A stretch of 63,315 nt of DNA, the filler included. It is 7 parts of 7 records of this genome, joined end to end, with 100 filler letters (N's around TTAATTAATTAA, not from the genome) between each part and the next. Parts side by side here need not be neighbours in the genome. Positions count along the whole stretch, not along the records: positions 48,040 to 63,315 come from SRR31156797_35597; 6 more parts are not named here. One strand, 5' to 3'. Below are positions 48,040-63,315 of the stretch, piece after piece. Position numbers and translations under genes: made by a program. Position 1 is the stretch's first letter. Every line of letters starts with the position of its first letter. Under the pieces are notes generated by a model, which ran no database searches, was not told where the DNA came from, and saw nothing but the letters and a program-made list of their open reading frames with translations.

Positions 48040-48069
48040 CTGGCTACTGACTACTGGCTACTGGCTACT
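48040..48069. repeat. Heptamer tandem repeat (CTGGCTA)n at contig edge
   Basis: ctggcta ctgacta ctggcta ctggcta ct. Confidence 0.85.
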
Positions 48070-48142
48070 TATACCATTATAACTAATTAATTCTGATAGA
48101 TAGCCCACTTCCAGTGTAGTGTCCCCTTGTTTTAGGATTTCC

Positions 48143-49507
48143 TTACTTTTTACTGACATTACAGGTGTAAAAACCGTTATCAGGAGATATTTTCTTTGCA
48201 ATGTACTGGTAAGATTCTTCCATTACTTTCTTTAACTCTCCTTCAAGACGCCTTTCAACGATGAAGCTATCATGGATACACAGGCATGCTTCCCTCTTGC
48301 TGGTAAAATGTTCCAACACAAGCAAGGCTATCTGCGAATCGATGTTCGTCAGGGTATACCCTTGCGAACTCGCAAAGTATTCCGCAATCGGTTGGTGTGC
48401 CTCCTTGAACATCTCTACCAGCTGTTTGATGGTAGCGTTTGTTCCTTTCAGTATTTGCCAAAGTTCTGGTTCATCATTAAGAATTGTATAATTACCAGCT
48501 CTTACAGCCAGGGTGTAATCAGGGGTATTGAATAGGGCCAACAAAAGTTTTTTCAGGATTGGCCGCAGCCGTTTATCTGAAGTCACCTTAGTATATGGGT
48601 CACCAACATACTGAACCCCTTTCATGCAATACAACAGCGTAGGGTGATACGCGTCGAAATCCAGCTCGACAGTCGCATTGCCATCAATCAGCAATTTTGC
48701 TCTCTCTTCTTGCGGTAAACTCTGGTAGCCGATTGCACCATTATAAAATCGGCCATTATCGTTGAAAGAAGAGTTGTTATACACACGGTGAAGGTCACAG
48801 ATGATGCTGATTTGCTTCTTCCCGTTTGGTAGAGTGACCGTATGTGCACTGTTGCATCGGTTTATAGCCCTTACTTCCTCTTGCAATCGTTTCGCTAATT
48901 TTTTCTTATTGGGCGGAATAGGAATATCTTCTTTCTTTTTATCACCTAATTCTTTATTCTTCCGTAATTTAATCAGCTCACTGCCAAGGGCTGCATCAGC
49001 ATCGCTACGAACAGTAATCTTGTTAAGCAGTTCGAACTTCAGTTTCTTGGAAGGTGCCAGCCGTGTCCACCTTCGCCCGCCCTTTCTCTTAAAATATGTT
49101 CCAGGCAAAAAGTGGCAGTACCCGTTTTCAATCAGCCAGTTAACCACCTTAATGATGAATTGGCTGAGCTTAGGATGATTGATGTAAAAGTTAGAGTTCC
49201 GTGTTACCCGCAAAGGACGTGTATTGGAGGCAAAATATAAGGAGCATATTAGGTTGTAAAACTGTCGCTCTTTATCCTCTTTTTTCAGCACACGTGTCAT
49301 TCCCGCGCTGAAATCCGGTAAAAATTTCTGACTGAAAAAGGCGCGGGCTACCGGCAAAGTATCAGCTGTCGGTACCAAGGTCGTAATTATTTCAAAGGAG
49401 TTCCTGTTCGCATCGTATGGTGATATCTCCTCCTGGCGTTCATACACCATCTGCCAGACACGCTTTTTCATCCGCTCATTTCGGAGCTTGTTACCTATTA
49501 TTGTCAT
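48143..49507 (-). CDS. PolA/T7-RNAP superfamily polymerase-like protein (TV-Pol-like)
   Basis: NGRFY...YQSL...IDGNATVELDFDAYHP (motif A), RPILKKLLLALF (B-like), CLCIHDSFIV (motif C); ATG 49507 preferred. Confidence 0.65.
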   Translation of the reverse strand: MTIIGNKLRNERMKKRVWQMVYERQEEISPYDANRNSFEIITTLVPTADTLPVARAFFSQKFLPDFSAGMTRVLKKEDKERQFYNLICSLYFASNTRPLRVTRNSNFYINHPKLSQFIIKVVNWLIENGYCHFLPGTYFKRKGGRRWTRLAPSKKLKFELLNKITVRSDADAALGSELIKLRKNKELGDKKKEDIPIPPNKKKLAKRLQEEVRAINRCNSAHTVTLPNGKKQISIICDLHRVYNNSSFNDNGRFYNGAIGYQSLPQEERAKLLIDGNATVELDFDAYHPTLLYCMKGVQYVGDPYTKVTSDKRLRPILKKLLLALFNTPDYTLAVRAGNYTILNDEPELWQILKGTNATIKQLVEMFKEAHQPIAEYFASSQGYTLTNIDSQIALLVLEHFTSKREACLCIHDSFIVERRLEGELKKVMEESYQYIAKKISPDNGFYTCNVSKK

Positions 49508-49578
49508 AATAATATAACTATTGGTGATACTAGTGGGTGCCGGACAACTGACAACTCCAACACCCACTAGTTATTGAT

Positions 49579-50673
49579 TTACGGTTTTTCAACTGATGAT
49601 ACCAAGCTCAGCCCACCTGCATCAGCTTCAACAAGTTCCAGTACAACGTCATCACCCTCGCCTGGTTTTAAATCCCTCCCTTTCTCAAAAACGGCCTTCA
49701 GATGTACCTTGTCCACAGCGTCTTTATCGACACGCTTTAAAGCTATAATATTATTAAGATTGCGACGAATACTTGAGTGTCCGCTATCCTTCCCACTTTT
49801 ATTGGCATGGTGTACCAAAATTGTAGCTACCCCCATATTTCGTAGGGTTAAAAGCCACCTGTTTATTTGAGCCCAGTCTTTGTTAATGTTCTCGTTCATG
49901 CCGTCGGCTAAGGACGTTAAATTATCCAAGATAAGAACACGGCATTCGGGCGAATTAACAAAGTGTTCAGTTATGTCCTGGCGGTATCTTTCCGATGTTA
50001 TATTGATTGGCTTTCCTGTTATTTCCTGTACCTCAAGGCTGGAAAGTATGGTCAGTGTATTAACATGGTGTTCTTCGCCCATTGGCTGGGATAATAGTTC
50101 AATACGTTCGTTCAACTCGGGAAGTGGCAACTCGCCGTCAACCAGCAACACGCTACATCCTTGATTAATTTCCCAAGGCCCTATTTTTATCCCTTTGGGA
50201 TTTAACCTTGTCAAACCACAGGCGATAGCGTGGCCTAGCCAGCTTTTCCCAACACCCGGATCGGCATAAAGCATTGTTATGCTACGAGCAATCAGGAACG
50301 GCAGTAGATAGATTACCAATTTTTGGAACTCCATATCCAACAATTCGGTTGCTGTAATGCCGTAGTTGCTGACCAGGTTACCCTCTACCTTTCCTTCTGT
50401 TTTTTTAGATACGTGGTCAACCTTCTGGCCCCCTTTCGGGGGCCGGTGTTCAGGCAATAAGGCCAAATCTTTTAACTTTTTTCGGATATCCCTATTTTTG
50501 CAGCCTGCCTCACAGACTGCGCGAATTTTTCCATTTTGGGTTACCCTTATTAATAATGACAACCCATTATCGTCATGGCAGGGGCATTTGGTTTTATATC
50601 CATCTGGTACCTGCATTTCTTTCCCATGACCTAGTTCATTGGCAAGATGTGTTATTGTAATTTTGTTACCCAT
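49579..50673 (-). CDS. Primase-type zinc finger fused to RecA-like AAA_25 helicase
   Basis: KCPCHDD...CEAGC; ADPGVGKS, VDGE, LILDNL, LVHHANKSG. Confidence 0.8.
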   Translation of the reverse strand: MGNKITITHLANELGHGKEMQVPDGYKTKCPCHDDNGLSLLIRVTQNGKIRAVCEAGCKNRDIRKKLKDLALLPEHRPPKGGQKVDHVSKKTEGKVEGNLVSNYGITATELLDMEFQKLVIYLLPFLIARSITMLYADPGVGKSWLGHAIACGLTRLNPKGIKIGPWEINQGCSVLLVDGELPLPELNERIELLSQPMGEEHHVNTLTILSSLEVQEITGKPINITSERYRQDITEHFVNSPECRVLILDNLTSLADGMNENINKDWAQINRWLLTLRNMGVATILVHHANKSGKDSGHSSIRRNLNNIIALKRVDKDAVDKVHLKAVFEKGRDLKPGEGDDVVLELVEADAGGLSLVSSVEKP

Positions 50674-51847
50674 TGCCCACCTCTTTCACATGATAAAGAA
50701 AATCGTCCGGGCAAATTATTTCTTCTAAATATTTTTCCTCCTCAAATGGACAAAATTTTTCATCGGTAATATTTTTTTGCATATCCTCCTTCACGATGCC
50801 AGGGATGGCTAACAACTGCTCATCGGTAATACAATAGTCGCCATCAACCCATGAATCAGGCTTGATATCCAACAGGCTTAAACTTGAGTTTTTGATCAAG
50901 GCATCGTCGGGCACATTATTATCCCCGCAAACAATTTCATAAGGGGCAATGGCAAGATCGTTGATGACATCACGACTGTTCTTTTTAGGTAACTTTTTCA
51001 GCACACTTGCCTTCTTTTCCGGTTTTTTAGCATCGGTGTGAGTGGTAACGGCTATAGAAGAAACAGGACGTTGTGCCTTGGACACTGAAGTGTTCTGTAC
51101 CTTCTCTGGCCCACTTTTAATCATGTCGATGGCATTGTTAAGTACCTTCATCATGAACTTCCCATGTTCCGTGAACCGATTACCCGAGTTAGGCCCGGCA
51201 ACTTCTCGTTGCTTATGAATAAATTTGTCGAAATCCTTTCGCTTGCGTTCAAGGGAACTAATTACCCTTTTATCAGCAGCTTTTAACTGTTTGCTGATGC
51301 TTACTTCTTTAATTTTTTTAAAGTACTGATCAATGACAATACTGTCAGGTGCAACATCACCGTTTTCGATTGCCACTTTCAGCGACACGACATCTTTGTG
51401 CTTTATGTTGAAACAGCCTACATCTGTGTCTTCCAGTTCTTGCAGGAATTTTTTCGTGAAACACTTTGCCCCCAGTATATATATTACGGACTTTTTCAAA
51501 CCCATCAGCCCAGGATGATCCAGTGTCACACGGTAATAAGTCATCGCATTCTGTGCTGTCCGAGGAGGGATAGAAAGATTATCAGTAACCCACTTTATGA
51601 ACTCACCGCGCTTCTTCAATTGCTTTTTTACTGACACTAAAACCTTGCCCATTCTTCTGGTATAGTCCTCGACCCCTTCGTGTAACAGCCCTACTTCATA
51701 TCTACAATGATTCAGATAAGCGACCAGTTGTTCAAGAGGGACTTTTTCTTTGCCTTCCCACATTACTTCCCTGGTAAACGCCAGCTCTTTCAGTTTTTCT
51801 TCCCTGGCTACCCCTTGTTTGTCATTATCACTATATTCCATTTTCAC
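50666..51847 (-). CDS. DUF3102-like protein
   Basis: MGKVLVSVK...RGEFIKWV...PRTAQNAM. Confidence 0.65.
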   Translation of the reverse strand: MKMEYSDNDKQGVAREEKLKELAFTREVMWEGKEKVPLEQLVAYLNHCRYEVGLLHEGVEDYTRRMGKVLVSVKKQLKKRGEFIKWVTDNLSIPPRTAQNAMTYYRVTLDHPGLMGLKKSVIYILGAKCFTKKFLQELEDTDVGCFNIKHKDVVSLKVAIENGDVAPDSIVIDQYFKKIKEVSISKQLKAADKRVISSLERKRKDFDKFIHKQREVAGPNSGNRFTEHGKFMMKVLNNAIDMIKSGPEKVQNTSVSKAQRPVSSIAVTTHTDAKKPEKKASVLKKLPKKNSRDVINDLAIAPYEIVCGDNNVPDDALIKNSSLSLLDIKPDSWVDGDYCITDEQLLAIPGIVKEDMQKNITDEKFCPFEEEKYLEEIICPDDFLYHVKEVGNG

Positions 51848-52145
51848 TTTCTCCTTTATCTGTCGGGTTACAATGGTCGATAGGCTCGACCGAATCTATC
51901 ACTTTAATTCCGCCAGTAGCCCGTAACCATTTTGACTTATGCTGGTTGAAAACCTCTTCAACCGTCTGTCCATCTTCAGTGGTAACTATCATTTCTCTTT
52001 CGCTTCCTTTAGCGATAAAAAGTTTTCGATAGTGCTGTTTGAGTTCCTTCGCACTAACCTCTTTATTTTTCTTACGGAACTTGCTGAATACAGAGCTCTC
52101 CTTTCTAGCGTAGATGGAGTAGCTGACCTTGTATATCTTCTTCAT
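51831..52145 (-). CDS. Hypothetical protein
   Basis: Coupled ORF in operon, GGAGG RBS. Confidence 0.7.
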   Translation of the reverse strand: MKKIYKVSYSIYARKESSVFSKFRKKNKEVSAKELKQHYRKLFIAKGSEREMIVTTEDGQTVEEVFNQHKSKWLRATGGIKVIDSVEPIDHCNPTDKGESENGI

Positions 52146-52146
52146 C

Positions 52147-52410
52147 CTATTCAGCCCCTCCTTTAATATCCTTGGGCAACTTGACCCTTGACACCTCTTT
52201 AATTTGATACTCCAACAGACACTCTCCTTCTGCCGTGCTGGTCAGATGTTTGTCTATCAGTCCTTCAACTTCATATCGATGGGTACAAACAATTAGCACG
52301 GTTTCTGAGTGCCACCTGTACCTTGGCTTCCATCGTTCTGTTTTAAATTTTTTCTGCCTCCGGTAGCTATATAATACCCACCATACGGATAGACGGTTCT
52401 TGTCCATCAA
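52147..52410 (-). CDS. Hypothetical protein
   Basis: AAGGAG RBS, first gene of the replication operon. Confidence 0.7.
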   Translation of the reverse strand: MMDKNRLSVWWVLYSYRRQKKFKTERWKPRYRWHSETVLIVCTHRYEVEGLIDKHLTSTAEGECLLEYQIKEVSRVKLPKDIKGGAE

Positions 52411-52738
52411 ATTCTCCTTTGCCTAATTAAGGCACTAAAATATATGAGATTACTCATGAACCACCTCGGGGATTAAAAAGGAGAGGCTATTCAAGAGTGG
52501 TAACAATGCAACCTCAGTGTGGTTGCTGACACGTTAGGAAAGGTGCACCGACGAGGGTGCTGAGATGAACTAGGGCCCCAGGGAGCGGGGAAGACGAGAT
52601 CAATCTGGATTGCTTAAAGCGGCCGTCTGCCGGATGAGCGACGAAATCGACCATCCAACTGACTGTATAGTATCATACGAGCACCGATGTTTTCAACTAA
52701 ATTGTGAAGCTTAAACGCTTGTAATCGTGGCAAAAAGC

Positions 52739-52765
52739 TGTAGCCCTTATTTTATAAGGGCTACA
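52739..52765. terminator. Inverted repeat downstream of integrase
   Basis: tgtagcccttat-ttt-ataagggctaca perfect 12-bp stem. Confidence 0.55.
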
Positions 52766-52893
52766 AGGAAATATTTTTTTTCGAGGAAAGGGTAATAATG
52801 ATAACGGGGAGCAAGAGGGCATTGGTTGTAGCTTGAATTCGCCACAGCGCTCTTTCTTTTATAGGTGATATAAGCCTGTTCTGTGTTTCAAGA

Positions 52894-53589
52894 TTAGTTG
52901 CTCCACAGGCACTTGATTTCCTTTTGAACATCTTCCGGTAGTATCGCCGCGTAGATTTCCGTTGTCCGTGAACTCTCATGACCCAATTGTCGTTGAACGA
53001 CCCTGATGTCCCGACACTGGCGGTACAGTTGAACCGCGTAGGAGTGTCGAAGGGAGTGGATGCTCATTGAGATCGTGTACAACCCTAATTTTTTCAGGTA
53101 TTTTTTGACCATCAGCTGGAATGCTTGGCATTTCATCGGACCCCGCTGCCCTTGAAATACATGACTATCATGCTCAACGGATTCTCCTCTGTTAGTCTTC
53201 CACTTCAGGTATCGTTTAATGTGCTGCTTTGTGGTAACCGGTATTTCGACATAACGACTTTTCCGCCCCTTGCCGCATCGAATGAAGATACTACTCTGTC
53301 CGTTCTTGACGAGAAGGTCGCTGCACCTTAAATCTGCAATCTCGGCGACCCGAATACCGGTTGTGGTCAAAAGATCGATAGCCATCCATTCTCTGATGCC
53401 GGTGACATTTTTTCTCATCAATGCAACTTCACCTTTTTCACGCACTGTTCTTCTTAGCGCCTGGATTTCCTCCTTGCGAAAGTACTTCACCGTTTCGCCA
53501 TATCGGACAATTTGCGTTTTCGCATCGTTTTTCTGATTTTGATCTTTGATGGCTGGAGTGAACGGGATAATCTTTGCTGTGTTAGGCAT
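52894..53589 (-). CDS. Tyrosine recombinase/integrase (catalytic domain only)
   Basis: TGIRVAE, GKGRK, HSLRHSY, QLGH, TTEIY. Confidence 0.93.
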   Translation of the reverse strand: MPNTAKIIPFTPAIKDQNQKNDAKTQIVRYGETVKYFRKEEIQALRRTVREKGEVALMRKNVTGIREWMAIDLLTTTGIRVAEIADLRCSDLLVKNGQSSIFIRCGKGRKSRYVEIPVTTKQHIKRYLKWKTNRGESVEHDSHVFQGQRGPMKCQAFQLMVKKYLKKLGLYTISMSIHSLRHSYAVQLYRQCRDIRVVQRQLGHESSRTTEIYAAILPEDVQKEIKCLWSN

Positions 53590-53731
53590 TTTTTGTCCTC
53601 CGGAATTTTCTTTTGAGTTTGAGGGTTTGTTTTGCTACTCCTGAAAACCTATTACTGAACGTTGTAGACTGGCGTAGAAACCGAACTCCAAAGAAAAGGA
53701 GTTATTATATATTGAGTTTGGGAGTCGCCTT

Positions 53732-54544
53732 TCATGATGCCACCTCAGAGTGAATGCTCGTGATTTCCATTCCACGGCTAAATACAATCATTTGTCCTGG
53801 ATTAAATTCTTCCCATTTTTCATCTGAGAGCGGGTTGCTAGCAATGATATAGCCGCTTTCATCACTTCCTTTATGGACATTAAGGTCTACTCCTATGTCG
53901 CTGTCACGGAAACGGCAATTTGAGAAAGGGTACTCACGCTTCACATAATGTAGATCCCGTGCGCCTTTTTTATCCCTGTAGGCGAAGAGCGTAAAACCGT
54001 CCGAAAAAATGCAGTTGAAAGCACCGTGACGGTTGATATCAAAAAGTATCTCATAAATTTTCTCCAAGTTTTCATCTGAGAAATACTGTAGCCCACCTCT
54101 TCTTCTAGGAATGATGTCTTTCTTTTCCATTTCGCCAAGAAGCGTACAGAATGCTTGCTCGGAGTCGGTGTTCCCGATTACTTGATAATTGATGTTCAAG
54201 GGAGTGCGGGTTGCCAAAGTCCCGTTGTGTGCAAAAATCATCTCTGTTCCGCAATAGTGACGAAAAAATGGGTGAGTATTTTCATAGGACACCATTCCAC
54301 GGCTGGCGCGTCGGACATGAAGGATGAAAGTTTCGGATTTCAGAAGATGAGAATGTTGAAGAAATGCAGCTAACTCACTTTCATTGCCAGGCTTTGGCTC
54401 TTTGAATACGACAGCTCCTTTACCATCAGGATGATAACCAATTCCCCATCCGTCTGGATTCCAGTCACAGCCTGACAAAAGGGATGGAAAGCTAAATTTG
54501 GGCTGGATCGGCTTGTTGAAATTTAAGGCAAGAAGCTCACACAT
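53732..54544 (-). CDS. Class II glutamine amidotransferase (YafJ/EgtC-like)
   Basis: MCELL N-terminal Cys, DGWG, HVRRAS, NTHPF, AHNG, TDSE. Confidence 0.9.
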   Translation of the reverse strand: MCELLALNFNKPIQPKFSFPSLLSGCDWNPDGWGIGYHPDGKGAVVFKEPKPGNESELAAFLQHSHLLKSETFILHVRRASRGMVSYENTHPFFRHYCGTEMIFAHNGTLATRTPLNINYQVIGNTDSEQAFCTLLGEMEKKDIIPRRRGGLQYFSDENLEKIYEILFDINRHGAFNCIFSDGFTLFAYRDKKGARDLHYVKREYPFSNCRFRDSDIGVDLNVHKGSDESGYIIASNPLSDEKWEEFNPGQMIVFSRGMEITSIHSEVAS

Positions 54545-55318
54545 AATTTTACTCCTTTCTGAACTTTTGGCGTAGGAATGCACTGTCGCGAATTTCGTGA
54601 TTTTTATTGTGTTCAGTATTTTGGTTTTGAATGGTTATGTAGAAAGGTGCAATTGAGCAATTCTCAAACAGTTAATCTTTTACTCAACTGCTTAATTTTA
54701 TTAGGATTAACGAAGACAATCAACCTTTAACACGTGATTTCATAAGGTTGAGTTAAATTTTGAAGGGATTTAAAAATTTCGGTGGGAGCACTTTTATACA
54801 ACAAACCTGAAAAGCTATTTTTCACTGTTTTTACTACAGCCAGTAGTCAGCACTGTAAACCTACTCCCAACAGTTTTTTTCGTTGTTGAGTTTTACAGGA
54901 CAGCCGTGTGTTTCAGCTCAGCGAACCCAGCAGTTTCTCCCTTTAAAAAATATGCTGAAGATGAATGCTAGTGAAGGGGTAAAAATATAAGAAGGGGGTA
55001 AATCTATGTGGTTGAAAAAAGGCTTACACGCCGACTTCAGCATATAAGGATGAGAAGTATTGGCTTCACAGCTGAGGTCTTGATGCCCTACGCTGATCTG
55101 ATGATGACAAGTTAATTTGCTGGATATCTTGTCTTACTCCCATTCGGCAAAAATGTTCGTTTCGGCAAATTTGCCAGTTCGGTGGCAGCGAATTCCTTCA
55201 ATAAAAATTGTGGCCACCAAAAAAATCGCGAATCAGGGGAGGTATTTGAATGACTGCCCTTCAGAAATTGAACCTGATAACGTTGCACTTCTGCTGTTAT
55301 GACTTTTTGGTACTGTGC

Positions 55319-55696
55319 TCAGAAAGATTTTAGGGGGAAACAACCAGAAGGCACCAAGGTTCCACTATTGTCCTCATTGAAATATATCCATGCCATAACA
55401 GTAATGGACTGAAAGGAATTATTATCCGGGCAAATTTCAACCTGCTCACGTTGGTACCAATGGGGATGTCCTTCGAGTTGATCCAGCTCGTAAAGGGTTT
55501 GGTCGTCAACTTCGTATAGTTCTCCATGGATTTGTGATACTGGTTCACTGACGATCACAAAAGGAATGCCACTGACATACATGGCGTACTTCTCTCTTGT
55601 CTTACCAGTCCCAAGGAATTTACTGTCAGCAAGAAACCTGTGGTTGCCATAACCACGCTTGAGCGTACCGTATACAAATATATTATGTGATTTCAT
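55319..55696 (-). CDS. Gamma-glutamylcyclotransferase family protein
   Basis: FVYGTLKRG, GELY, LDQLEG, AWIY. Confidence 0.9.
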   Translation of the reverse strand: MKSHNIFVYGTLKRGYGNHRFLADSKFLGTGKTREKYAMYVSGIPFVIVSEPVSQIHGELYEVDDQTLYELDQLEGHPHWYQREQVEICPDNNSFQSITVMAWIYFNEDNSGTLVPSGCFPLKSF

Positions 55697-55771
55697 ATTA
55701 TTACGTGAATTGGAAAATTATTCTGGAACGTAAAGTTTTCTTGTTTCCAGGTTCCAGGACAGGGAGTAAAA

Positions 55772-55969
55772 TTACACCACATCCACATATTCCATTATCA
55801 AGGCCAGAACATCGTCATACCTGCCACCAGAATTCTGCAACGCTTCTAATGCGGTATCAAAATTTAAAAGTTCTTGTATCAGCCCTTCTTTCTTTAACGT
55901 GTTTCTGACTATAGCTATCAGGTTGAAGACATTCCCGTTTTCTCCAATGAGCTTGCATGTTGGTTTCAT
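55772..55969 (-). CDS. Small MGE-associated hypothetical protein
   Basis: LIGENGNVFNLI...YDDVLALIMEYV, a pattern recurrent in phage/ICE proteins. Confidence 0.7.
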   Translation of the reverse strand: MKPTCKLIGENGNVFNLIAIVRNTLKKEGLIQELLNFDTALEALQNSGGRYDDVLALIMEYVDVV

Positions 55970-56298
55970 GACTGCTCACCACGGAATCTGATTTTCGGTA
56001 TCACTGAAACAGGTGTTGGCGGCCAATGCTCTTCCAACTCACAGTCTATTTCTATGCCGCCAGCACAGATTTCTTTCAGCTCAGTGAATGAAATATAGCC
56101 CCATTCGGCATTTTCCATATCACCGTTCAAAATCGCATATCCGAAAAATATATCTTCACCATCGTACTCTGCAACAAACCAGTCGCTACCGCCTATAAAG
56201 AAATGCAGGTGGATAATTTTGTCTTTGATCGGGATTGATTCTGTTTCGTAAAGGCGGGGTATACTGGCAAGGCGTTCTTTGCTGGGTTCGTTCCACAT
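55966..56298 (-). CDS. DUF2958-like protein
   Basis: PRLYETE, HFF...WFVAEYD...FFG...EWGYISFTEL; GAGGTG RBS before ATG 56298. Confidence 0.75.
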   Translation of the reverse strand: MWNEPSKERLASIPRLYETESIPIKDKIIHLHFFIGGSDWFVAEYDGEDIFFGYAILNGDMENAEWGYISFTELKEICAGGIEIDCELEEHWPPTPVSVIPKIRFRGEQS

Positions 56299-56819
56299 AG
56301 TGCACCTCATGCTGTTTAATAAATGAGGTTTTCAACGATAACATCCAAACGAGTGGAGTTAAACCAGGAACAGTTTTTCGTTGTTGCAACAGCGGAGACC
56401 TAGCGAAGACGCTTATTCTGTCGAAGGTGTACCCTCTTTATCGGACTTGATCAGAATAGCGGCAGATCGCGATTCTTAGGGAAATGCGAAAACTTTTCGG
56501 TTAAGTAAATTTTTCCGAATTCAACATAGGAGCAATCGGCAAGGTAGAAAAGTAGCGTTTATGTAAAATTCAGGAATTTCTTTGAATAATATTCTTGCCT
56601 GGAGTACAAACTTAACTACATGAAATTATTCTACTAACATTTACGTCACGATGTGACACCATTTACTTATGCTCAAAATTGGCGGTGGCTGTGTGGTATG
56701 GTCAAGAGTAAATGAAAATATGTTTAGTACATTGGAAAAACATACCCCTGATTCAGGTGTACATGAGGATACTATGAGTATTGAAAATGTTAGATATTTA
56801 ATAATTAGAGGAGATATGA

Positions 56820-58052
56820 ATGCTTGATCAAGCTTTCTCTCCATCTCGTTTGTTACGACTTGTTAAGCCTGAAGATGTAGCGAGATTTAGGCTATGGCGA
56901 CCCGGCGACGATCAAGATGCTATTATGGGTGACATTTCCTCTGAAATCAATGACCCAGAATTTTCCTTTCCAGATTTTAAGGAAAAAATTATGAGGGGGA
57001 AAACAATCTACTCGGCACCTGACGCTGTTTCGATACTTGCCTTACGTAAACTTGATAGAAACATTCGAGCGATTTACAAGGTTAAGCAGGCTAATCGTGA
57101 CGCTATGGTTCATCAGGTGAAGTCGCTATTACAAGAAGGCTGTTCGTTTACTGTCCTTCGCCTCGATATTAAATCCTTTTATGAATCAATAGACTGTAGA
57201 AAGTTGTTGAATAAAATTTCTCGAGATTCAATAGTCTCCTATACATCGAGAACCATTTTCAAGAAACTTTTTGCATCTAATCAATTTGACACCCTTTCTG
57301 GTCTACCTCGTGGGTTTGGCGTGAGTGCAACGCTAGCAGAGTTATATGTGCGAAGTCTTGATCGCCAGATCCAGGAACTCAAACATGTCTATTTTTACGG
57401 AAGGTATGTTGATGATATGGTTATCTTTACCCATGCTCCAGGTGAAGAGGTTATTGAGAAGATAAAAGATATTCTAAGTAGCTTAGGATTAGAACTTAAT
57501 CCTGAAAAAAAGGACATTATCGAGTGTAGTAGCAAAAAGAATCTCCACGATGAAAGTTGTGAATGTTTCGATTTTTTGGGTTATCGTTTCGAATGTAAGA
57601 AGTTTTTAATTAAAGAAGATGAATGGCGAGAGGTTACTGTTGGTATAGCTACTTCTAAACTGAAGAAAATTAAGTCACGCATTGCACACTCTTTTATTAA
57701 TTATTCAACAGCACCTGACTTCCCGTTACTTCTAAAAAGATTAAGGTTTCTCACCGATAGTCACACCCTCCGCAAGGGACCAAATGGTGGGCTTAAGGGG
57801 GGGATTTATTACAACTATAATCATATTGATAATGAAAAGGATTTAATTGAACTTGATAGTTTTCTTCGTCGATTAATTTTCTGTAAGAAAGGTTCGATTG
57901 GTAAGAGGTTAGCCCCCCAACTAAATGCTATACAAAGGCGAGAGCTGATTAAGCTCAGTTTTGTTGCTGCATTCAAAGGACGTTTTTCCAGAGGACGCCT
58001 CTGGGGTTCAATGAAAGAAATACGAACTGGCTGGATCTATGAGAAAAATTAG
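56820..58052 (+). CDS. drt3a: Antiviral reverse transcriptase Drt3a (UG3 class)
   Basis: VKQANRD, RLDIKSFYESI, GLPRG, GRYVDD, FDFLGY; 14-nt overlap with second RT. Confidence 0.9.
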   Translation: MLDQAFSPSRLLRLVKPEDVARFRLWRPGDDQDAIMGDISSEINDPEFSFPDFKEKIMRGKTIYSAPDAVSILALRKLDRNIRAIYKVKQANRDAMVHQVKSLLQEGCSFTVLRLDIKSFYESIDCRKLLNKISRDSIVSYTSRTIFKKLFASNQFDTLSGLPRGFGVSATLAELYVRSLDRQIQELKHVYFYGRYVDDMVIFTHAPGEEVIEKIKDILSSLGLELNPEKKDIIECSSKKNLHDESCECFDFLGYRFECKKFLIKEDEWREVTVGIATSKLKKIKSRIAHSFINYSTAPDFPLLLKRLRFLTDSHTLRKGPNGGLKGGIYYNYNHIDNEKDLIELDSFLRRLIFCKKGSIGKRLAPQLNAIQRRELIKLSFVAAFKGRFSRGRLWGSMKEIRTGWIYEKN

Positions 58053-59973
58053 AATCGACAAGTCTGACAAGTACCGCGTTCTTCTTACTGATGTACTTCC
58101 TTATGAAACACCGATGTTTTTTTCAAATGAAGGCTTCTACAGATTTTCAAAAAATAAGCTAGCGGACGCTGCGCCAATTGTTCGACAAATCCTTACCACA
58201 TTTGAAGATAGTCAAAAAAAGAAAATTTCTAAAATTGCCACCACTCCATACAGTTATGGGATCAGGAAAGGTACTTTAGGCGTACGCACGTTGAGCTTGT
58301 TTCACCCTGCAGTACAATTACAGATCGTTGATTTTTACGATAAATTTTCACATGTTATCCTAAATCTCTGCAAGCGGAGTCGATTCTCGCTTCGATATCC
58401 TGCTGCAATTGCATCAGCTGTTTATGGCAAAGAAGATGAAGCTATTGATGAGGTGAAACATGGAGCAACTTTTTTTAAGTATGAAAAGTATGATTTCCTC
58501 TATCGTTTTTACGAATCTTATGAACTGCAACGTCTAGAGAAGAGATTTCGACATTTAAGATTGTTTGATATTTCTAAATGCTTTGACCATATTTACACGC
58601 ACACTTTGTCTTGGGCTGTTCGGAGTAAAGACTTTGCGAAAGGAAATCTAGGGAGAAAAACTATTGATGGGGAATTCGATGCAATTATGCAAGCGGCGAA
58701 CCACAAAGAAACCGCCGGAATTCTGATTGGATCGGAGGTGTCTAGAATTTTTGCGGAAATCATTTTACAGAAGGTTGATCTTTCTGTCGAAAGCAGGTTG
58801 TCTAGCAAGCTAAATCGTGGGATGGATTATGATATTCGCCGATATGTTGATGACTACTATGTATTTTCTAGAACAAAAGAGATCGGTGAAACGGTCATGC
58901 GGATATATCTTGAGGAGCTAAAGATATACCGCCTCTTTTTTAATGAATCGAAATCTGTTGTCATGGTTGTACCATTTATGACGACTATCTCCTGTGCAAA
59001 AGTTGAGCTTGGTAACATCCTCAGCATTTTTTTTGAATCGTTAATAACTAAGAGTCAGGTCATTGATGGCACAGACAAAACGATAACAACATTACTGAAA
59101 ATTCGAAGTCCTAACAAGAAGGCTAGTCGGCTAATCCAGCAAATAAAATCTATTATAAAATCGCATGGAGTAGAGTTCACCAGTGTCTCCGGGTTTATAT
59201 TTTCAGTACTTGAAAAAAGGTTGAAAGATATTGTTAATAGTATCGACAAAGATAATACCAGTGACCTTGAGTTAGGAAATTTTTTATATGTCTTACTCGA
59301 TATCATATTTTTTATATACGCAATGGATGTTCGAGTATCTATAACCTATAAGGTTGGGCGCACCGCCATTAAAGCGTGTAAAACAGTTCATGGGCGCTCT
59401 GATGAAATAAATGAATTGATCAAAAAGAAGATTTACGATGAATCTCGGCGGATATTAGAATCTGAAACCTTGGGGCAACCTGAATTTTATGTAGAAACAG
59501 TCAACCTTTTAGCTGTTATTAGAATGTTGGGACCAGAATATCATGTTAGTCCAGAAATCATTGACAAGATGATAAAGGCAATGGATCGTGATAGGACCGA
59601 TGATGATTCTTCTGGGATTGACTATTTTCTCGTTGTGGCAATCCTTTTTCACATTGGAGATAATGTAGAATATTCATTTCAGAAAAAAATATTACTTCAA
59701 AAAACTATTGAGAAATTTGAAAAAGAAGAGAGACATTCTCACCGAGCCGATTTTACCTGCCTACTTTTTGATTTGCTCAGTTGTCCATTTTTAGATAATA
59801 AAATCAAAAAGAAATTGACGAGAGCCTTTAAGATTAATGATAGATTGTTGTCGGATAAAGAGAGAGGGTGTATAATGGCCGATGTTCCAAATCATCAATG
59901 GTTTACTGATTGGCACGCAAGAGATAACATTGAGGTCTTATTGCTCAAAAAAAAATACCAAGCACCATATTGA
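58039..59973 (+). CDS. drt3b: Antiviral reverse transcriptase Drt3b (UG8 class)
   Basis: LLTDVLPYETPMFFSN, DISKCFDHIYTH, GILIGSEVSRIFAE, RRYVDDY; helical C-terminal extension. Confidence 0.92.
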   Translation: MRKIRIDKSDKYRVLLTDVLPYETPMFFSNEGFYRFSKNKLADAAPIVRQILTTFEDSQKKKISKIATTPYSYGIRKGTLGVRTLSLFHPAVQLQIVDFYDKFSHVILNLCKRSRFSLRYPAAIASAVYGKEDEAIDEVKHGATFFKYEKYDFLYRFYESYELQRLEKRFRHLRLFDISKCFDHIYTHTLSWAVRSKDFAKGNLGRKTIDGEFDAIMQAANHKETAGILIGSEVSRIFAEIILQKVDLSVESRLSSKLNRGMDYDIRRYVDDYYVFSRTKEIGETVMRIYLEELKIYRLFFNESKSVVMVVPFMTTISCAKVELGNILSIFFESLITKSQVIDGTDKTITTLLKIRSPNKKASRLIQQIKSIIKSHGVEFTSVSGFIFSVLEKRLKDIVNSIDKDNTSDLELGNFLYVLLDIIFFIYAMDVRVSITYKVGRTAIKACKTVHGRSDEINELIKKKIYDESRRILESETLGQPEFYVETVNLLAVIRMLGPEYHVSPEIIDKMIKAMDRDRTDDDSSGIDYFLVVAILFHIGDNVEYSFQKKILLQKTIEKFEKEERHSHRADFTCLLFDLLSCPFLDNKIKKKLTRAFKINDRLLSDKERGCIMADVPNHQWFTDWHARDNIEVLLLKKKYQAPY

Positions 59974-59975
59974 GT

Positions 59976-60182
59976 TTGGGGATGGCACAGAAGGGGAAGG
60001 TTCGCGACGGTCAGTATTGTTTTTTGGTACTGACTCAATTACAGTTCTGATACAGATGTATTTTGACGTATCATGACCTGAGTCCAATTCGGTTTTTGTG
60101 TATGTTCATAAGTGGCGACTGAAGGCATACTCATGAGGCGGACACACACAATGTACTCGGACCCTGATGTGCTAATCCCCAA
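59976..60182 (+). ncRNA. DRT3-associated structured ncRNA with ACACACACA tract
   Basis: Closing helix ttggggat-ggcaca / tgtgct-a-atccccaa; internal stems; ACACACACA at 60142-60150; immediately after drt3b stop. Confidence 0.82.
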
Positions 60183-60254
60183 TTAACAAGCTATTGAATA
60201 TTTCTATCCGATTAAACACTACCTATATCTCTCCCGTGAATAGCACCTTTTTAT

Positions 60255-62207
60255 TTACATAATCATTTCTCGCCAACCTTCAAAGATCATAACCATCGCA
60301 AAAGTATCAAGTTCACAATAACGCAAGAGCGCACCGACAAGCTCATTTCTTTCAACAGTAGTCATCTCACTGAATTGCATTCTCCCATAGGCAGCCAGTG
60401 CGGCCCCGCCGTCAGCAAGTTTCTCGTCTTCAGTCAGTATCTGATAGTTTTTTTCGCTGACATCCTTGAACATTTTTGGAAGTTTTTTATAAGGGTCGAG
60501 CACCTCCCCGTTATTTATTTCCAGCCATTGCCAATCATGGAAATTAAAACTTTTAATGCCCCCCTCTGCCCCATAAATCGGTTTGGAGTATTTCTCTTGC
60601 AAATAGGTACTGGATTTTAAAATGGCTGGTAGCACATGTTTAATGGAATTAGATCCATGCGTCTTTGGGTCGTAGTAAAAACGTTTCACTAGATCCCACA
60701 TATCAACCATTTTTCGTTCGCCTTCCCAATATTCGTGAGCGGTACGAGTAGAGGTGCTGATCGACTTTATAAAATCACAGAGTTCTTCCCTATCTTGTAT
60801 GAATATTTCATCAGCTTGTAACTGTCTATAAATATGATTCAAGTATGTATTTTCATGTGGCGAGTAACAGAAAATAGTTCCATTATCATTTTCTAATTCA
60901 CACTTCAAGGCTCTCAGAAAATCATAATTAGGGAATTCTCCAGCACAGCTGTTCAAGTATTCACCGCTATGTTCTACTTTGCCATCTTCATACACTGTAT
61001 GATGAGAGAACTGAAAGGCTATTGGTTCATATGGTCGACGGCCTTTATTAAAAGGTATGGCGACCATGCTAGTCTCAAAATCGATGAAATGCAGAGGGTA
61101 TGTCCATCGACACATTTCCCTATTCATCCCAATATTATCAAAGTAAGGCGTTGGGTCGTTTAGTTGAACTTTCTCAACCTGCAACCACCTTCTTTCTTTT
61201 GCTGAAATACCAGGATTTCCATCGCCTTCCGGGTTAAAATCCTTATAGGTTAGATCCGAAAATTTTAATTTCCCCTCTTTGATTAGCTTGTCTTTTCTCC
61301 TTTCTTGCCAAATTTCCAAAATATTCGGTTCATCAAAATCAATATCTTCCCACAAGAGGCTTTGTTTCCAGCATTCCTTGAAACCATTTTTAAACCCCAT
61401 GGCCTCTTCATCTTTTGAACATCTGAACTCACATTTTCCACATTTGGAGCCGATAGACGGGAAAATCTTGATGTTTCTCTCATAGTGCTCGGCAAAATGT
61501 TCAATTTGGGCAGGAAAAGTTTCATCCTTCATGATTAGATCTATGCATTCGTCAACTGGGACTTTAACTAGAATCCAGTCACTTAGATCTTCATCGTTTA
61601 ATGAGGTCGAGACTTTAATCCCTTTGCGATTATTCTGATCACGCACAATTCTAAATTTCTGATTAAGCCCATCAACGGGGCATCTGGCATTTTTGTCTGC
61701 CAACATGAGAAAACTTGAGATATCTGCGTTGGGCAATCTGCCACTGAGTACATATCGCTGAAAAGCTACATCATCAAGATATGGTTGCCAGTTGCTCCTT
61801 ATAGCTCCACCATTTGTGAGGAAAGGGGCATCAGCCTCGCTATCAACAGACTTGGCCTTAACTTCAATAAGTTCAAAATGGTTTCCATCTTTTACAAGCA
61901 CATCAACGCGAATAAAAAGGTTACCAAACCTTATTGCTGGCTCATAGATGATTACCTTTTCTCGTTGCAACAGTTTATTGGTTTGTTGCTCAGCTTCTGC
62001 ATAATCAAGGCTAGTAATATCATAGCCCCCTGGGTGATAATATTTGGCTAACTCACCAACCTGGAAACCACCTTCGGCTAAAGCGGCAAGAAATGAATCA
62101 TCAAGTTTTGTATCAGGATATTCTTTTTTATTGGTGTAAAAAAGTTTGGTGGGGCATTCTCTTGCGAGTTTGAAACGTGATTTAGTTAGGAAAGGAGGTT
62201 TGGGCAT
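60255..62207 (-). CDS. DUF2779 protein (PD-(D/E)XK/Cas4-like nuclease plus RNase H-like domain)
   Basis: LTKSRF...ECP, VDVL...IEVKAK, CGKCEFRC, FIDFET, FQFSHH, YCELDT. Confidence 0.82.
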   Translation of the reverse strand: MPKPPFLTKSRFKLARECPTKLFYTNKKEYPDTKLDDSFLAALAEGGFQVGELAKYYHPGGYDITSLDYAEAEQQTNKLLQREKVIIYEPAIRFGNLFIRVDVLVKDGNHFELIEVKAKSVDSEADAPFLTNGGAIRSNWQPYLDDVAFQRYVLSGRLPNADISSFLMLADKNARCPVDGLNQKFRIVRDQNNRKGIKVSTSLNDEDLSDWILVKVPVDECIDLIMKDETFPAQIEHFAEHYERNIKIFPSIGSKCGKCEFRCSKDEEAMGFKNGFKECWKQSLLWEDIDFDEPNILEIWQERRKDKLIKEGKLKFSDLTYKDFNPEGDGNPGISAKERRWLQVEKVQLNDPTPYFDNIGMNREMCRWTYPLHFIDFETSMVAIPFNKGRRPYEPIAFQFSHHTVYEDGKVEHSGEYLNSCAGEFPNYDFLRALKCELENDNGTIFCYSPHENTYLNHIYRQLQADEIFIQDREELCDFIKSISTSTRTAHEYWEGERKMVDMWDLVKRFYYDPKTHGSNSIKHVLPAILKSSTYLQEKYSKPIYGAEGGIKSFNFHDWQWLEINNGEVLDPYKKLPKMFKDVSEKNYQILTEDEKLADGGAALAAYGRMQFSEMTTVERNELVGALLRYCELDTFAMVMIFEGWREMIM

Positions 62208-62208
62208 A

Positions 62209-62844
62209 TTAATTTTCGCTTGGCCAAAAATAATTGGTTTTTCCGCAAGGAGTTACGATTCTTTCGTTCTCGCTTGTCGCCAAAGTGTGAAGGTCTAATG
62301 TCCACTGCCTTTTAATCCCCATTAAAAGTGCATAGGCAGATATCACGGCATCCCACTCATGGTCATTTTCTGTGTTTACCTCGAGGCCTAATTGTTTGGA
62401 TAAATAACTGTCCATCCTTATATTATTACGCTCGTAATCATATTTCTCTTTAGTTAAAGCGAAGTATAATACTTTAGGGTGTGTTTCAGACAAAACGACA
62501 GTCTTAATTTTTTTTGAAATTTCAATCAACACAGACATGCCATTAAGGCCCATAGAGCCGGATAATGTATTCGGTGACATAATACTATTTATAACTTCAC
62601 GATATTTACTCCGTAGCCATAGATCTGCAGGTCTCCACCCACTATCACCGCTACTCCAGCATGAAAGTGTATCAACACCAAGGCCAACAAGGTTAGAATA
62701 ATTTGATATCTCACGAATCACCGATTCAGCATTTTTCAATGTCAGTATTTCAACCTTGCAGGGGACAAAGTTATTAACTTCTATGATTGCCAAGCCATTC
62801 TTACAATTTCCGCCAGGGTCATACCCTGCAATAATGCCATTCAT
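62209..62844 (-). CDS. DUF429 RNase H-fold predicted nuclease
   Basis: GYDPGG, GVD, ETHPK, DHEWDAVISA. Confidence 0.78.
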   Translation of the reverse strand: MNGIIAGYDPGGNCKNGLAIIEVNNFVPCKVEILTLKNAESVIREISNYSNLVGLGVDTLSCWSSGDSGWRPADLWLRSKYREVINSIMSPNTLSGSMGLNGMSVLIEISKKIKTVVLSETHPKVLYFALTKEKYDYERNNIRMDSYLSKQLGLEVNTENDHEWDAVISAYALLMGIKRQWTLDLHTLATSENERIVTPCGKTNYFWPSEN

Positions 62845-62899
62845 TACCTCTTCACCCTTTTGGCTTTTAATTCACAAAAGATAATTTTTAATGTGCTCT

Positions 62900-63065
62900 T
62901 CAGATAATAACTTTTAGTATGAAATATTCAAGCAATACCCCATCCACAATCCACGGCCCTTTTACACCAGGCAGTTTATAACCTAGGATATTTTGCGCAA
63001 CCCAGCGTGCTGCAGTCGCAGTGAGATACAGTATGTCCAATTTATAAGCGAATTTGTTTTCAGGT
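62900..63065 (-). pseudogene. Degenerate duplicate of the adjacent HTH gene
   Basis: QIRL*IGHTVSH [frameshift] ATAARWVAQNILGYKLPGVKGPWIVD aligns to the intact copy 250 bp away. Confidence 0.7.
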
Positions 63066-63140
63066 TTAATGCTGCAAATCAGCAAATTTTTCGTTTACGA
63101 AAAAATATCTAATATGAGCGAAGAAACAAACAGATTTCGC

Positions 63141-63314
63141 TTATAGGCTTCTTGGTACAATGGTATTCAAGTAACTCTGAAACAACACCTTGTCCACAAT
63201 CCATTGACCCCTATGCCCAGGTAGCTTATGTCCAAGATTGTTTTGGGCAACCCAGCGTGCTGCTGTCGAATGAGAAACTGTACGCCCAGTTTGTAACAGA
63301 ATTTGTTGCTGAGC
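63141..63314 (-). CDS. Small excisionase/MerR-like HTH protein, 5' truncated (missed by ORF track)
   Basis: Own translation AQQQILLQTGRTVSHSTAARWVAQNNLGHKLPGHRGQWIVDKVLFQSYLNTIVPRSL*. Confidence 0.6.
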   Translation of the reverse strand, partial: AQQQILLQTGRTVSHSTAARWVAQNNLGHKLPGHRGQWIVDKVLFQSYLNTIVPRSL

Positions 63315-63315
63315 G

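Follow-up and report, generated by a model that had tools for sequence, protein, structure and literature searches.

A DRT3 locus whose Drt3b reverse transcriptase retains the residues implicated in protein-templated and protein-primed DNA synthesis

Results and Discussion

A complete DRT3 operon

By its sequence, the segment from 56820 to 60182 of the 63,315-nucleotide (nt) stretch of DNA analysed here (the window) forms a DRT3 anti-phage system with all three of its parts, namely the reverse transcriptase (RT) genes drt3a and drt3b followed by a putative non-coding RNA (ncRNA). The window consists of seven parts from seven records joined end to end, and positions 48,040-63,315, which include this system, derive from SRR31156797_35597. 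It is very probable that the full DRT3 mechanism, as transferred by homology from characterised enzymes, applies to this operon, in which case Drt3b would synthesise a defined DNA repeat with its own side chains in place of a template and its own C-terminal tyrosine as primer. This mechanism has already been published (Deng et al. 2026; Wang et al. 2026); the case made for the present locus is correct and is not new.

The drt3b gene (58039-59973, plus strand) is an intact open reading frame (ORF) with an ATG start and a TGA stop codon, and encodes a class 1 (UG8-type) RT of 644 amino acids. The translated sequence contains TDVLPYETPMFF and ETAGILIGSEVSRIFAEIILQ and has the C-terminus KKKYQAPY*, so that Y644 is the last residue. 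The protein scores 604.1 bits against the NCBIfam equivalog NF041748 Drt3b (cut-off 350), is recognised by the PADLOC Drt3b model PDLC02176 (E 6.6e-195) and matches both solved Drt3b chains in phmmer searches, namely 26cz_A (E 1.6e-103) and 9z6y_H (E 1.3e-85). On sequence grounds it is clearly a member of the Drt3b family and is correctly annotated as such. The initial annotation of this locus, which had drawn attention to E23 in LPYE, R236 in GILIGSEVSR and the terminal Y644, gave the ORF coordinates and the residue numbers exactly.

Directly upstream lies drt3a (56820-58052, plus strand), which encodes a class 2 (UG3-type) RT of 410 amino acids. This protein scores 390 bits against the NCBIfam equivalog NF041747 Drt3a (cut-off 200), is detected by PADLOC with E 2.7e-122, and matches the solved Drt3a chain 9z6y_A with E 2.8e-50 over residues 1-405. 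The catalytic YVDD motif is intact in both RTs and corresponds to residues 196-199 of Drt3a (57405-57416, plus strand). The two ORFs share 14 nt and are therefore assigned to one operon. Family membership and operon layout, together with the conservation and residue correspondence described below, are direct observations. The window Drt3a is the expected RNA-templated partner, which would make poly-(dTdG).

Predicted active-site residues of Drt3b

The E. coli enzyme (EcoDRT3b, 667 amino acids) is described by Wang et al. (2026 preprint, PMC13174585), who report electron cryo-microscopy density for (dCdA)7 that is continuous with Y666 (section 7), and the loss of DNA-linked protein species, poly-(dCdA) and defence in a Y666F variant. 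As described there, E22 hydrogen-bonds with the incoming dA, R241 forms a hydrogen bond with the dC at -1 and changes its position, and R71 stacks on the incoming dA; the E22A/K and R241A/E mutants are near-inactive, and E-to-D and R-to-K variants are also mentioned in the text. According to the abstract and section 10, RecBCD keeps the (CA/TG)n duplex at low levels in E. coli, and inhibition of RecBCD by phage Gam leads to accumulation of the duplex and to abortive infection. For a second solved Drt3b, Glu26 and Arg253 are the residues named for base selection in a commentary (PMC13213688) on the study of Deng et al. (2026, Science), which is also described in section 11 of PMC13314766. The corresponding PDB entries, 9z6y and 9z6z, represent the Drt3b of a 6:6:6 Drt3a-Drt3b-ncRNA complex, according to papers that cite the study, and it is chain A of this complex that the window Drt3a matches.

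Both enzymes are represented among the PDB sequences, EcoDRT3b as a SUMO fusion of 775 amino acids (26cz) and the second enzyme as a 650-residue chain entitled 'Drt3b reverse transcriptase protein' (9z6y/9z6z). Since the 26cz_A chain has 775 residues and the EcoDRT3b of the paper 667, the tag offset is 108 residues, and this value was validated by the residues named in the paper, which land on the correct letters. In the phmmer alignments E23 (codon GAA, 58105-58107; all codons cited are on the plus strand), the candidate dATP gate, pairs with E22 of EcoDRT3b and Glu26 of 9z6y, and R236 (codon AGA, 58744-58746, within IGSEVSR), the candidate dCTP specificity switch, pairs with R241 and Arg253. 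The alignment with the E. coli enzyme that the initial annotation had proposed as a check therefore matches E23 and R236 to E22 and R241. A further arginine that was absent from that annotation, R83 (58285-58287), aligns with R71 (the position was counted by hand in the printed alignment) and is the predicted base-stacking residue. In the DISKCF segment (58567-58584), which carries the metal-binding Asp of RT motif A and a sugar-contacting Phe, D177, I178 and F182 align with D182, I183 and F187, whilst Y269, V270 and D271 of the catalytic YVDD motif (residues 269-272; 58843-58854) align with Y276, V277 and D278, and the last Asp of the motif with D279. The printed alignment to 26cz stops at residues 643/773; Y644 (codon TAT, 59968-59970, followed by the stop codon at 59971-59973), the candidate priming tyrosine, falls on Y666 (chain residue 774) by ungapped continuation. 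The 9z6y alignment covers residues 2-638 and stops six residues before both C-termini, so that the tyrosine match is not seen there. All of the active-site residues named in PMC13174585 keep the same amino acid in the window protein.

The suggestion that the GILIGSEVSR segment lies where ordinary RTs have a QG-type motif proved roughly right. A BLASTP comparison with the Drt3a of the window pairs AGILIGSEVSRIFAE of Drt3b with SGLPRGFGVSATLAE and identifies this segment as RT motif B, in which I230-G231 occupy the position of the (Q/R)G pair and R236 lies five residues beyond the Gly, at the position of Pro in the canonical 'SP'. The residue aligned with R236 is Asp in Abi-P2, His in DRT6 and Ser in UG15/DRT4, and in these alignments an Arg at this position is specific to Drt3b among the solved class 1 RTs.

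Each biochemical step in the window protein is assigned by homology. Drt3b would start DNA synthesis on the hydroxyl group of its own Y644 and would add dC and dA in strict alternation without a nucleic-acid template. E23 would accept adenine and repel G and T, whilst R236 would hold the cytosine at the primer end and shift after the addition of A so that C enters next, with R83 stacking on the incoming base and catalysis carried out by D177 and the YVDD motif. Drt3a, for its part, would copy ACACACAC, in a putative loop of the ncRNA, into poly-(dTdG), and the poly-(dCdA) and poly-(dTdG) strands would anneal to form a (CA/TG)n duplex. The three proposals made initially, that Glu and Arg side chains stand in for a template to enforce A/C alternation, that the protein primes synthesis through its terminal Tyr and that a DNA of specific sequence is made with no template of nucleic acid, agree with what the two 2026 studies report for Drt3b and are supported by homology (about 36% identity), E23/R236 being equivalent to E22/R241 and Glu26/Arg253, and Y644 being placed on Y666.

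Conservation and the candidate priming tyrosine

In a MAFFT alignment of 121 rows (the query and its 120 best database matches), R236 is Arg throughout (121/121) and E23 is Glu in 118 rows, the other three being N-terminally truncated and gapped at this column. R83 is Arg in 117 of the 121 rows, and in motif A D177 and F182 are each retained in 120. Y644 is Tyr in 115 rows, and the remaining six are C-terminally truncated. We also constructed an alignment of 54 full-length homologue rows (A1), with a mean column identity of 43%, in which E23, R236 and Y644 are among 44 invariant columns; the initial annotation had recognised that a lack of conservation would count against its proposal, and all three residues turn out to be invariant in these full-length homologues. 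From their sequence conservation, E23, R236 and Y644 are not chance features.

The position of the tyrosine relative to the C-terminus varies within narrow bounds. Among the 115 rows, the number of residues after it is zero in 73, one in 31 (the E. coli arrangement), two in 10 and three in 1; because it is the last residue in 73 of these 115 sequences, the terminal Tyr of the window protein is the commonest form and not a peculiarity. A scan of one genome per species (185,579 species) recovered 571 stretches encoding a relative, of which 80 were kept as loci for comparison (L001-L080), and 70 of these have a complete drt3b ORF with at least 300 nt downstream. In all of these 70 filtered loci a Tyr lies within the last four residues. 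The C-terminal tails of the 80 loci recur by clade, for example as ELRTPY, EWGSSY, NPPYSG, YIFSYN, YHSPYE and PVYAWA, with the Tyr 0-3 residues from the end.

It is conceivable that a primer other than Y644 is used, either another conserved tyrosine (e.g. Y22 of LPYE, Y73 or Y269) or an external primer. Other class 1 RTs do prime elsewhere, as indicated by the title of PDB entry 7z0z ('AbiK ... Y44F variant'), which points to an N-terminal Tyr; Y22 is near-invariant (117/121 rows), and the C-terminal tail is modelled with low confidence in the structure described below. Nevertheless, the reported density of EcoDRT3b runs into Y666 and the Y666F substitution eliminates both products and defence (PMC13174585, section 7), and the Tyr in the last four residues is common to all 115 untruncated homologues as well as to the 70 filtered loci. 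We therefore consider priming from another site extremely unlikely, and Y644 remains the preferred candidate.

Predicted structure of Drt3b

The AlphaFold2 (AF2) model of Drt3b, built on alignment A1, has a mean predicted local distance difference test (pLDDT) score of 87.8 and a predicted template modelling (pTM) score of 0.88. In this model an RT domain is followed by an all-helical repeat domain, as in protein-primed class 1 RTs. The best structural matches are to DRT4 (Z 25.8; root mean square deviation 3.7 Å over 479 residues), DRT6 (Z 24.6), AbiK (Z 21.3) and Abi-P2 (Z 18.6), and Foldseek returns the same set of proteins.

The putative downstream RNA and its candidate template

The gap between drt3b and the convergent next gene is 281 nt in length and contains ACACACAC (60142-60149, plus strand), the putative template that Drt3a would copy into poly-(dTdG); this role is taken from section 5 of PMC13174585. 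The ACACACAC sequence occurs once in the 63-kb window, counting both strands, and starts at the 169th base past the drt3b stop codon (zero-based index 168). The first 217 nt of the gap (59974-60190) fold at -70 kcal/mol (z -3.3), and none of 200 shuffled sequences folds as well. The predicted structure is closed by a 12-bp helix, in which 59978-59989, just past the stop codon, pairs with 60168-60180, just 3' of the template, with internal hairpins between the two strands. On the evidence of this fold and of that of a relative, L081, we place a putative DRT3 ncRNA of about 205 nt at 59976-60182 on the plus strand; its ends are approximate. L081 comes from a metagenome and encodes a Drt3b that shares 53% identity with that of the window, and its RNA folds independently into the same layout (z -3.6). 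Blocks common to the two RNAs are GTTTG-GGA-ATGG, AATTACAG, TGAGTC-AA and GACACACACAATGT. A few two-sided pair changes are seen between them, but a comparison of only two RNAs does not suffice to establish the fold.

The arrangement of the operon was compared across 81 loci, the 80 genome loci and L081. In each of the 80 loci that contain both genes (80/80), drt3a precedes drt3b in the same orientation; the other locus (L015) has no Drt3a match and just 236 nt of upstream DNA. Of the 70 filtered loci, 64 have an ACACAC motif within 400 nt beyond the end of drt3b. The controls give 4 of 66 for the 400 nt that follow and 20 of 305 for 400-nt windows inside drt3b, and the reverse complement of the motif, GTGTGT, is found downstream in none of the 70. 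The distance from the stop codon to ACACAC, counted from zero like the index 168 of the window, is 40-266 nt, with a median of 120. Six of the 70 loci (L018, L045, L046, L060, L063 and L065) have no ACACAC within the 400 nt downstream. A similar overall design recurs in three loci from Pseudomonas and Leclercia, whose RNAs are predicted to be closed by a helix, to contain stem-loops inside it and to leave ACACAC single-stranded immediately ahead of the 3' strand of that helix; 22 of the 59 predicted pairs in these RNAs have two-sided changes. The Leclercia locus L032 gave no match when used as a DNA query against E. coli genomes.

Several observations weigh against the assignment of the complete DRT3 mechanism to this locus. 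The window Drt3b shares only about 36% identity with the enzymes that have been studied (36% with a partial E. coli Drt3b). The fold comparison (Foldseek 'pdb' library to 2026-04-08, VIA wide set) covered class 1 RTs other than Drt3b, and residues 642-644 have pLDDT values below 50, because of which the placement of Y644 in the AF2 model is unreliable. With respect to the RNA, L081 is the one alignable relative that supports it; an Rfam scan of 55000-63315 at E <= 1 returned no matches, and a blastn comparison of the window intergenic RNA with the 70 downstream regions detected no similarity other than in the template, with only chance-level matches of 11-19 nt (best E 0.89). In addition, whereas the template of a DRT3 ncRNA is expected in a loop beside a stem-loop, the minimum-free-energy fold of the window RNA pairs ACACACAC partly with the upstream GUGUAUGU (60097-60104). 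This pairing could mask the template, and it probably lies outside the functional fold because it is absent in L081.

Some of these observations bear on the nature of the product. An enzyme with the same fold and priming mechanism might, in a divergent sub-branch, make another repeat or a less strict sequence, with residues besides E23 and R236 tuning selectivity. The level of identity would be compatible with this, as would the residue at position 232, which is Ser in the window and in 23 of the 121 aligned rows and Pro in 96, and the ncRNA sequence, which is unlike the enterobacterial and Pseudomonas type. On the other hand, every active-site residue named for the E. coli enzyme is identical, and the partner RT would still copy ACACACAC, a template that requires (CA)n as the complementary strand. 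A different product is therefore very unlikely in our judgement, and synthesis of poly-(dCdA) is the favoured interpretation.

The closest database relatives of the window Drt3b (85-52% identity) are nearly all encoded on short metagenome contigs, and a metagenome scan for close relatives confirmed a single locus (L081) from 106 pattern matches. The window copy is a fairly distant member of a thinly sampled Drt3b sub-branch, and its ncRNA, although it retains an 8-nt template, can no longer be recognised by sequence as one of the enterobacterial type. We regard it as unlikely that this sub-branch also differs in the assembly or triggering of its two RTs and RNA, for example in a host without the RecBCD guard. 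If this were true, the divergent sub-branch would provide a natural variant with which to ask which parts of the DRT3 machine are truly required.

Genomic context

A small mobile-element-like module (48143-53589, minus strand) precedes the DRT3 operon by about 3 kb. It encodes a tyrosine integrase (52894-53589; Phage_integrase, E 3.8e-29), an AAA_25 primase/helicase-like protein (49579-50673), a phrog_4756 protein (48143-49567) and a 393-residue ORF (50666-51847), all on the minus strand. The G+C content, measured in 2-kb bins over the window, is 24-30% at 42-48 kb and 24-26 kb as against 52-56% at 28-40 kb, and the low-G+C block encodes PAS, GGDEF and solute-binding signalling proteins. These swings may stem from acquired DNA that forms a mosaic or, alternatively, from chimerism in the assembly. 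The integrase/primase neighbourhood and the varying G+C content fit an island-borne defence gene.

An island-borne copy might be silent or decaying and have no present function. The compositionally mosaic stretch beside the integrase and primase module is in keeping with such a fate, and a scan for promoters and terminators yielded no more sites than shuffled sequences, none of them convincing. Decay is, however, difficult to reconcile with two intact, full-length ORFs that have overlapping start and stop codons and retain their catalytic and specificity residues, or with an intact ncRNA template. We attach hardly any probability to a non-functional copy, and an intact DRT3 operon is the reading that we prefer.

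Two genes on the minus strand converge on the DRT3 ncRNA (60255-62844), and encode a 650-residue DUF2779 protein (E 2.8e-22) and a 211-residue ORF. Neither has a PADLOC, NCBIfam or PHROG match, and the 211-residue ORF has no family match. These two genes, together with those for a GGACT protein and a 114-residue ORF, were considered as extra DRT3 parts and rejected; all four are placed outside the DRT3 system because they are found in 0 of the 81 related loci.

Comparison with known systems and implications

The closest characterised counterpart of the window Drt3b is EcoDRT3b (PDB 26cz, PMC13174585), with which it aligns over its full length, the Drt3b of 9z6y being further removed. The LPYE Glu, the motif B Arg, the stacking Arg, DISKCF, YVDD and the C-terminal Tyr are identical in the two proteins, and both systems have Drt3a upstream and an ACACAC ncRNA downstream. 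The window Drt3b differs in being 23 residues shorter, mainly as a result of loop deletions, in having IGSE where the E. coli enzyme has IGPE, and in having Tyr as its last rather than its penultimate residue; the ncRNA sequences are unalignable outside the template. More distant relatives (DRT4, DRT6, AbiK and Abi-P2) share the RT palm and fingers with an alpha-repeat domain that replaces the thumb and, according to published abstracts, also carry out protein-primed, template-independent synthesis. In contrast to Drt3b, the same abstracts describe their products as random or semi-random DNA with no strict dinucleotide repeat, and they have neither a partner RT nor an ACACAC ncRNA. There is nothing atypical in the window copy of DRT3 and no departure from the rule of the family.

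Synthesis of a defined DNA repeat with amino acids as template and a protein as primer, which ranks among the more striking enzymologies of recent years, was demonstrated in 2026 with two other Drt3b proteins. The window copy makes no open question newly testable; its use lies in the correct annotation that it provides and in a divergent sequence with which to compare other family members or to work on structure. Considered along with the counts made in related loci, it shows that the Drt3a-Drt3b-ACACAC arrangement extends across phyla. The window copy also adds an intact orthologue in which every key residue is kept, and so supports the generality of the Glu/Arg/Tyr rule in the Drt3b family.

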